Below, in pieces: positions 26,076 to 26,657 of a DNA stretch of 64,000 nucleotides. Made by a program: the position numbers and the translations under genes. The notes under the pieces are model-generated. The model did no database searches, had not been told where the DNA came from, and saw only the letters and a program-made list of their open reading frames with translations. Position 1 is the first letter of the stretch. Each line of letters starts with the position of its first letter. Origin of the DNA: a virus (taxonomy: Duplodnaviria > Heunggongvirae > Uroviricota > Caudoviricetes). Location of the stretch: IMG/VR virus record IMGVR_UViG_2721755662_000004; one strand, given 5' to 3'.

Positions 26076-26657
26076 TCACTGGGTAAGCTCGTTTGGTTTT
26101 AAATGTCCGTCGAGAATCAGATTGTGATTTTCCCGATGCAGAACCAGTGTGCCCATATAATCAGGTTTAAATCTCCATCCATTCATTTTTTTTGCAATTC
26201 TGGACAGACAGTGATTATGTGTGAAAATCACAGTAACATGATCTGATTTTGATATTTTAAGGATATTATTTACTGCGTTATCATCACATGTCGATATGTC
26301 CGGAATAGTTGCTGTCTTACCTCCCGAAAAAAAAGTGGCTGTCTGCATTGTTCGGAGTGTGTCTGTAGAATAGAGACTGTAGTATGGAAACATTCTTCTG
26401 AATTTATCTCCATATTGTTGAGCTTTGTTAGCTCCGTTTACTGTGATTCCCTCATGTGCTGAAAGACATATTCTTTGGGAGCGATCGCATCTTTCCCCAT
26501 GCCGGATGAGAAAAATAATGGGATGTTTCTGGTTAATCTCAGTGACATCGTTCACATCAAGTCTGACTGGAGTTCTTACAATGTATATGATGGATACAGA
26601 AACGATTATGACAAGTAAAAATATAAGAAGAGATTTTGTTAGCGTTTGATTTAACAT
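26076..26657 (-). CDS. Ais/PmrG-like histidine phosphatase (LPS core heptose(II)-phosphate phosphatase family) with signal peptide
   Basis: IFLIRHGERCDRS...GITVNG...YSLYSTDTLRTMQTATFFSGGK...VIFTHNHCL...FKPDY resembles my recollection of E. coli Ais; opposite strand, AT-rich flanks. Confidence 0.6.
   Translation of the reverse strand: MLNQTLTKSLLIFLLVIIVSVSIIYIVRTPVRLDVNDVTEINQKHPIIFLIRHGERCDRSQRICLSAHEGITVNGANKAQQYGDKFRRMFPYYSLYSTDTLRTMQTATFFSGGKTATIPDISTCDDNAVNNILKISKSDHVTVIFTHNHCLSRIAKKMNGWRFKPDYMGTLVLHRENHNLILDGHLKPNELTQ

Follow-up and report, generated by a model that had tools for sequence, protein, structure and literature searches.

Lysogenic conversion directed at lipopolysaccharide (LPS) is known to target the O-antigen, by glucosylation or acetylation, while the conserved LPS core serves as a binding site for cations, for antimicrobial peptides and for numerous adhesins of phages and pili. 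The closest described systems to the gene reported here are Ais of Escherichia coli (b2252) and PmrG of Salmonella. PmrG removes the phosphate of heptose II, an activity that, as recounted in PMC8129183 (citing Nishino 2006), is documented only for the Salmonella protein. Under iron stress, the ais gene shares its regulation with eptA, arn, pmrR and basR (PMC13405929). A gene of this family, encoding a histidine phosphatase of 193 amino acids (aa), lies at 26076..26657 on the minus strand of the stretch of 64,000 nucleotides (nt) analysed here, hereafter the window, whose positions serve as coordinates throughout and which derives from a prophage like those of E. coli O104:H4. We consider it probable that this gene is a lysogenic-conversion moron, inserted in a 933W-like prophage without Shiga toxin (Stx) genes in the slot between Rz and the packaging genes, which we take to be the position of bor in lambda, and that it encodes an Ais/PmrG-family periplasmic LPS-core phosphatase driven by PmrA/BasR.

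The 193-aa open reading frame (ORF), in which a sequence-only reading of the window had pointed out an RHG and an FTHNHCL motif, is intact. Its translation contains FLIRHGERCDRS at aa 48-60 and VIFTHNHCLS at aa 143-152, and its stop codon lies at 26076-26078. Against NF011945, the NCBIfam model of the LPS core heptose(II)-phosphate phosphatase subfamily, the protein scored 201.9 bits (cutoff, 142 bits), with profile positions 14-199 of 201 aligned. The Pfam family His_Phos_1 (PF00300) was matched with 28.7 bits (gathering cutoff, 21.7 bits; E = 1.3e-6) in an alignment confined to the N-terminal third of that profile, and BLASTP aligned the protein with K-12 Ais over 158 aa at 43% identity (E = 7e-44). 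Together with the invariant catalytic residues described below, these scores uphold, at the level of the family, the resemblance to Ais that had been noticed from the sequence. The assignment of the name is itself routine and not new, as it is already present in RefSeq, where WP_000934362.1 has identical coordinates and a coding sequence (CDS) of 582 nt; likewise, the Prokaryotic Genome Annotation Pipeline (PGAP) gives the same product name in 83/83 E. coli genomes that carry the gene or a paralogue detectable at the DNA level. The phage protein and Ais/PmrG are similar in length (193 versus 200 aa), begin with an N-terminal hydrophobic export segment, pass the NF011945 cutoff and have the motifs RHGERCDRS, GIT, RTxQTA, FTHNHCL and KPDY in common. 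They differ in that the catalytic triplet reads RHG in the phage protein but RHA in K-12 Ais.

To describe the active site, a family alignment of 37 members was used. Invariant across it are R52, H53, R56, C57, D58, R59, S60, C64, G70, I71, T72, R102, Q105, H147, C150 and Y167. The catalytic RHG with its nucleophilic histidine is encoded by codons R52-H53-G54 (26496..26504, minus strand), which hhalign placed on R7-H8-G9 of K-12 SixA, with R102 on SixA R55. H147 (codon at 26217..26219, minus strand), within FTHNHC, follows strand E141-146 of the structural model in the manner of the SixA SH motif, and from this position it is probably the second catalytic histidine. An AlphaFold2 model built on the family alignment (predicted local distance difference test score, 92; predicted template modelling [TM] score, 0.84) places a helix at residues 2-26 ahead of a compact alpha/beta domain. 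The top Foldseek matches of this model in the PDB were all histidine phosphatases, with E values of ~1e-7 to 1e-6, among them the C-terminal domain of MutT1, phosphoserine phosphatases and SixA (target-normalised TM score, 0.70). In a profile search of solved structures, no structure of Ais or PmrG was found. SixA, a phosphohistidine phosphatase, has the closest solved fold; both proteins belong to the compact branch 1 of histidine phosphatases, with the RHG and the second arginine aligned. However, SixA is cytoplasmic, lacks a membrane segment and the cysteine-rich RCDRS...C loop, and is only 12-18% identical. The protein search and the structure prediction that the sequence-only reading had called for thus arrive at the Ais family and at a histidine-phosphatase fold with the RHG and R102 in place; the best matches were not to an unrelated phosphoglycerate-mutase branch, and the catalytic histidine is present.

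The predicted N-terminal helix (aa 2-26; 26580..26654, minus strand) contains a hydrophobic segment of 19 residues, SLLIFLLVIIVSVSIIYIV, between K8 and R28, which may act as an export signal or as a signal-anchor. A signal peptide had been read here from the sequence; the hydrophobic segment stands, whereas the cleavage that the term implies is in doubt for want of an evident AXA site. By its sequence, the segment is no less likely to be an uncleaved signal-anchor than a signal peptide. The chromosomal Ais N-terminus differs in this respect, being signal-peptide-like and ending in THA-AW in the alignment, so that the likely signal-anchor of the phage protein is to be set against an AXA-type signal peptide in Ais. 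Either form would place the catalytic domain on the periplasmic side, and the invariant cysteines are consistent with an oxidising, periplasmic compartment.

The gene is flanked by Rz, which ends at 25995, and terS (27260-28075), both on the plus strand, as are the holin, lysozyme, terL and portal genes. The ORF map and the RefSeq annotation therefore agree with its earlier placement between the lysis and terminase genes, on the strand opposite to the late operon. The GC content falls to 0.38-0.39 over 26000-27000, compared with 0.50-0.57 in the flanks, in keeping with the AT-rich setting that had been described. The borders of the insert were located by comparison with P13374, the Stx2 phage of O104:H4, which has the same backbone. 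Homology to P13374 ends at 25988 and resumes at 27106, delimiting a moron cassette at 25989..27105 (GC, 0.38-0.41) that has no counterpart in P13374, where the slot is filled by another gene, Rha-like and on the plus strand. These breakpoints, the different gene in the slot, the dip in GC content and the opposite strand all bear out the description of the gene as a moron. Over 26000-27250, the window shares 100% identity with a prophage in E. coli O104:H4 strain 2011C-3493 and with many other O104:H4 genomes. The annotated neighbourhood comprises CI/Cro/CII, Q, a SASA-family esterase, holin, lysozyme, Rz, two terminase subunits, portal and an N4-gp56-type capsid gene, and stx genes are absent from it. 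The esterase (21868-23778, plus strand) is a 636-aa SASA-family carbohydrate esterase resembling the NanS-p sialate O-acetylesterases and is located downstream of Q, at the stx position, which points to a 933W-type backbone without toxin genes. Judged by this gene content, the carrier is a 933W-like (Sepvirinae-type) non-Stx prophage.

The arrangement resembles that of bor (and lom) in lambda in several respects: a slot after Rz and before the packaging genes, the opposite strand, a promoter of its own (here a candidate), atypical composition and an envelope product. The two genes are nevertheless unrelated in sequence and fold, Bor being an outer-membrane lipoprotein and the phage protein a predicted enzyme, and the phosphatase promoter, as far as its sequence tells, seems to rely on a two-component regulator of the host.

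Homologues that are 54-85% identical were traced to contigs and IMG/VR records and occupy the same slot in at least five lysis/terminase backgrounds. Every phage homologue stands after the lysis genes and before the small terminase subunit gene, on the opposite strand, while the surrounding modules vary. Thus, the comparison loci L006, L007 and L009 have a GH108 endolysin, Terminase_2/6N, and ParB and TAGT; L008 and L044 combine a GH108 endolysin with an Nu1/gpA terminase; L010, L041 and L046 have a lambda-type lysozyme or Rz with an Nu1/gpA terminase; L027 has an R-type lysozyme and Rz with another terminase; and L035 has an M15-type peptidase endolysin. Pairwise comparison of the window gene with six diverged homologues gave a ratio of nonsynonymous to synonymous divergence (dN/dS) of ~0.2, at dS values from 0.3 to at least 1.3. 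This ratio indicates that the gene has been kept by purifying selection and that it is a real gene and not a chance ORF. In a tblastn search of 50,697 phage records, the gene was found in one, the Stx1 phage GER2 (99.5% protein identity), and no significant family for the phosphatase was found in PHROGs. The gene is nearly absent from curated phage collections, yet present in prophages.

We found no canonical sigma-70 -35/-10 pair upstream of the phosphatase gene on the minus strand. In place of the -35 element stands a direct repeat resembling the PmrA/BasR box, CTTAAG-gatta-CATAAG (26705..26721, minus strand), which is 64 nt before the ATG and has one mismatch to CTTAAG-N5-CTTAAG; 10 nt downstream of it is a -10-like hexamer, AATAAT (26689..26694, minus strand). 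From this layout, transcription would be expected to begin near 26680-26683. The pmra-box has been described as a pair of XTTAAY hexamers with a 5-nt spacer, standing in for the -35 element, and an imperfect second repeat is known from the Klebsiella pbgP box, CTTAAT...CCTAAG (PMC10570014). The K-12 arnB promoter, with CTTAAG-gttaa-GTTAAT, 10 nt and TAAAAT, has a spacing identical to the phage layout. Of all sites in the 150 nt that precede the gene, the phage box came closest to CTTAAG-N5-CTTAAG, and its score was reached by 0/2000 shuffles. Judged by eye, the repeat fits neither the RcsB nor the PhoP consensus, and RcsB-like and PhoP-like readings were set aside.

The box is also conserved, and most phage copies have it with the 10-nt spacer and an AT-rich hexamer. 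It is kept at -64 to -71, with arnB-like spacing, in at least eight phage lineages, including L027-L029, L030, L035, L041, L044 and L046; it persists at synonymous divergences of 0.65-1.0, in surroundings whose sequence has changed. The box has no mismatches in L030 (CTTAAGgattcCTTAAG), one mismatch to CTTAAG-N5-CTTAAG in L027-L029, and two in both L004 and L035 (GTTAAGattttCTTAAT). Three phage lineages fetched afterwards served to test the prediction, and 3/3 had the box followed by 10 nt and AATAAT: L041 at -68 (CTTAAGgattaCATAAG), L044 at -70 (CTTAAGgatttTTTAAG) and L046 at -66 (CTTAAGgattaCGTAAG). No box was found at the AraC-linked copy L043 or the SPATE-plasmid copy L012, nor within 150 nt of IncI traG or of K-12 ais, the latter in contrast to the box 64 nt from the ATG in the phage. 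These sequence features suggest that the phage copies are transcribed from a PmrA/BasR-dependent promoter.

Taken as a whole, such a system could work as follows. The cassette would be switched on in the lysogen once Fe3+, Al3+ or mild acid activates the host PmrAB (BasSR) system, through a promoter with a PmrA/BasR box and no -35 element; the transcript would run antisense to the late operon, and its product would add to that of chromosomal ais. The N-terminal helix would insert the protein in the inner membrane or export it, leaving the catalytic domain facing the periplasm. There, a phosphomonoester of the LPS inner core would be hydrolysed via phospho-H53, the rest of the phosphate pocket being formed by R52, R102 and H147. 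In lytic growth, the late transcript, antiterminated by Q, would cross the cassette antisense to the gene, as with bor.

Relatives of the gene are found on chromosomes and plasmids. Chromosomal ais is a core gene beside arnB, present in 5413/5426 complete E. coli genomes, whereas the phage-type gene is accessory, being detectable at the DNA level in 83 of the same 5426 genomes (1.5%), 43 of them with the window allele. Genomes of porcine enterotoxigenic E. coli contain divergent alleles of the phage-type gene (~66% DNA identity), with up to 3 copies per genome. On plasmids, 36 records contain copies that are 60-80% identical; these are IncF plasmids, and the gene is located beside AIDA-I, insertion sequence (IS) elements and helix-turn-helix (HTH) regulator genes. 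A copy that is ~45% identical is present in ~1400 records of IncI-type plasmids, just upstream of traH-traI-traJ, as seen, for example, in plasmid pB15 (L039, 3878-4462). IncI1 pili (PilV) bind the LPS core of the recipient, and a link between the TraG phosphatase and the binding of PilV to the core is conceivable. On pESBL of O104:H4, the IncI1 gene is called TraG and is dispensable for conjugative transfer (PMC4288162). Like the phage protein, TraG is an Ais-like protein borne by a mobile element (~45% identity over aa 40-184); however, it is encoded inside a conjugation operon, is sister to the chromosomal clade in the tree and, as noted above, lacks a nearby pmra-box. The O104:H4 strain of the 2011 outbreak thus has three family members: chromosomal ais, the prophage copy and IncI1 TraG on pESBL. 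A further plasmid paralogue, 43% identical (P0036, 817 collection blocks; L012-L015), has an EAL-domain gene on one side and two alpha/beta-hydrolase genes on the other, with the gene for a SPATE autotransporter (Peptidase_S6, 1284 aa) downstream; no pmra-box was found upstream of the paralogue.

Several observations weigh against the proposal of a PmrA-driven, periplasmic heptose(II) phosphatase. The equivalog model for PmrG, NF052369, gave 113.2 bits and so missed its cutoff of 170 bits. In a neighbour-joining tree, the window protein groups with the phage and IncF-plasmid copies, apart from the chromosomal Ais/PmrG of Escherichia, Salmonella and Citrobacter, and at 43% identity and in a separate clade, it may not share its substrate with these proteins. 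The phage copy is nominally redundant beside core ais, and any selective benefit is hypothetical. Inspection of the N-terminus by eye gave no convincing AXA site for a cleavable signal peptide. At L010 the box has degenerated and at L006 it is weak, and a search of the whole window for the degenerate box YTTAAK-N5-YTTAAK with at most one mismatch returned 5 occurrences against 3.05 expected, showing no enrichment; as this count is uninformative, the evidence for the box consists of its position and its conservation. Finally, deletion of pmrG in a PmrA-constitutive E. coli left polymyxin B resistance unchanged (PMC8129183). A peptide-resistance phenotype may therefore be small, and this is the weakest part of what the sequence-only reading had proposed; the other effects suggested there, on LPS core phosphorylation, phage adsorption and serum resistance, are likewise hypothetical. 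Part of this evidence would suit an enzyme of the same class and location with another substrate, the heptose(II) annotation having been over-transferred from PmrG: the score under the equivalog cutoff, the limited identity to Ais, the separate clade, the stretch from R102 to H147, modelled as a loop region, which differs between the clades, and the coexistence with a core chromosomal ais, which argues for non-redundancy. Candidate substrates would be heptose(I)-phosphate, the lipid A 1-diphosphate or Kdo-linked groups, phosphorylated intermediates of O-antigen or enterobacterial common antigen, or a periplasmic phosphoprotein. However, the motifs RCDRSxNxCLS, GIT, FTHNHCL and KPDY are fully common to Ais/PmrG, the curated subfamily model NF011945 is passed, and a PmrA-type promoter suits a function in LPS charge; we regard a different substrate as rather unlikely, though it deserves some weight.

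The cassette might also be a silent passenger, hitch-hiking in a recombination-prone slot, poorly expressed from its AT-rich DNA, possibly silenced by H-NS and without measurable effect on the lysogen. Its rarity would fit, many of the 83 positive genomes belonging to one outbreak clone, as would the decay of the neighbouring PHROG 7528 lipoprotein gene in this phage and the dispensability of the IncI1 paralogue TraG in conjugation (PMC4288162). Set against the low dN/dS across lineages, the invariance of all catalytic residues, a promoter architecture conserved within otherwise diverged upstream DNA and repeated capture by different phage backbones, a passenger without effect seems improbable to us. 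Another view of the family comes from AfrS, which has reportedly been described as a fimbrial co-activator. The homologue P0066, to which its source gives the name "transcriptional activator AfrS", corresponds to P0025 with a frameshift; aligned over the full length, P0025 and the window protein are 54% identical (related locus, L035 5938-6513). P0009 (68% identical; L043, 4065-5582) is encoded after an AraC-family gene, next to a chaperone-usher fimbrial operon, and the IncF copies stand beside two HTH genes and AIDA-I. From these names and neighbours, the phage protein could be a regulator or helper of surface-adhesin expression instead of an LPS-remodelling enzyme with a direct phenotype. 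The AfrS-type genes of IncF virulence plasmids and fimbrial islands do belong to the same mobile clade (54-68% identical), but they are paired with AraC-family regulators near adhesin operons and named as transcriptional activators, whereas the phage copies are solo and have their own promoter, with neither an AraC gene nor an adhesin gene adjacent in the window. Moreover, the protein combines a membrane helix with an intact phosphatase active site and lacks a DNA-binding domain, and a regulatory effect would most simply be indirect, via the envelope. We regard a main role of this kind as very improbable. Given the names and neighbours of these relatives, the published AfrS may itself be an Ais-like periplasmic phosphatase.

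Returning to the phosphatase reading, a wider generalization is possible, although we hold it only tentatively: enterobacterial mobile elements, in the lambdoid bor slot, on IncF plasmids near adhesins and in the IncI1 tra operon, may share a dedicated Ais-like clade that rewrites inner-core phosphate, with the phage copies under PmrAB. If so, this would be conversion of a new kind, in which the charge of the inner core is altered instead of the O-antigen, and inner-core phosphate editing under host PmrAB would extend lysogenic conversion to the conserved core. Possible effects would include the exclusion of core-docking phages, colicins or IncI1 PilV pili and a fine adjustment of tolerance to metals and peptides in the gut. 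The O104:H4 strain with its three family members would be a convenient system for asking about redundancy. If the protein merely duplicates Ais, it would be a routine accessory paralogue that annotation pipelines have already named correctly. A literature search on prophage-borne ais/pmrG and on AfrS returned nothing relevant, and the mobile-element clade, the repeated capture of the bor slot in unrelated lambdoid phages, the conserved PmrA-box promoter and the O104:H4 trio are apparently undescribed.

The start codon and the remaining features of the cassette were also assigned. The ORF listing gives 26076..26690 (minus strand, 204 aa) at this locus, of which the start at 26657 yields the 193-aa protein. 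The start at 26657 was preferred because a Shine-Dalgarno-like AAGGGA (26664..26669, minus strand, read from the sequence) lies 7 nt before this ATG, because homologues of the phosphatase begin at the equivalent codon, as does the RefSeq CDS, and because the ATG at 26690 falls inside the predicted -10 hexamer; the 204-aa start, which also lacks a Shine-Dalgarno sequence, was rejected. Just past Rz and the 3' end of the phosphatase gene, a GC-rich hairpin followed by a T-run (26000..26025, plus strand; GCCAGCTCAATCGCTGGC, then CTTTTTT) resembles a terminator. Its minus-strand tail is not T-rich, so that a role in both directions is conjectural.

Divergent from the phosphatase gene is a decayed gene for a 60-aa lipoprotein (26743..26924, plus strand) in a block conserved with L006, L008, L027, L029 and L030. 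In the window, its frame is disrupted by a 1-nt indel and two stop codons. The intact ORF (L006, ~7560-7750; also L008, L027, L029 and L030) has the lipobox LLVGC at the end of its signal sequence and matches PHROG 7528, a family of unknown function (E = 3e-35), and it travels together with the phosphatase gene in several cassettes. A 34-aa plus-strand ORF starting at 26743 (MTRNTV...GAFFIGWLLKS), which has no family matches, was discarded as a frameshift product of this decayed gene. In the GER2 record (MG710528), the apparent truncation of the phosphatase gene to a 273-nt CDS (L002, 6597-6869), with a spurious 40-aa ORF on the opposite strand, was likewise dismissed as an annotation artefact, the 193-aa ORF being intact. 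Other genes of the homologous prophages were noted in passing. The stx genes of Stx phages are situated just downstream of Q, and in L010, a lambda-type prophage with an 83%-identical homologue, a pertussis-toxin-S1-like ADP-ribosyltransferase subunit is encoded just downstream of Q (15326-16051). In L035 (8573-9316) and L044 (8103-8831), an AraC-family regulator of ~245 aa is encoded between the Q/methylase region and the lysis genes.

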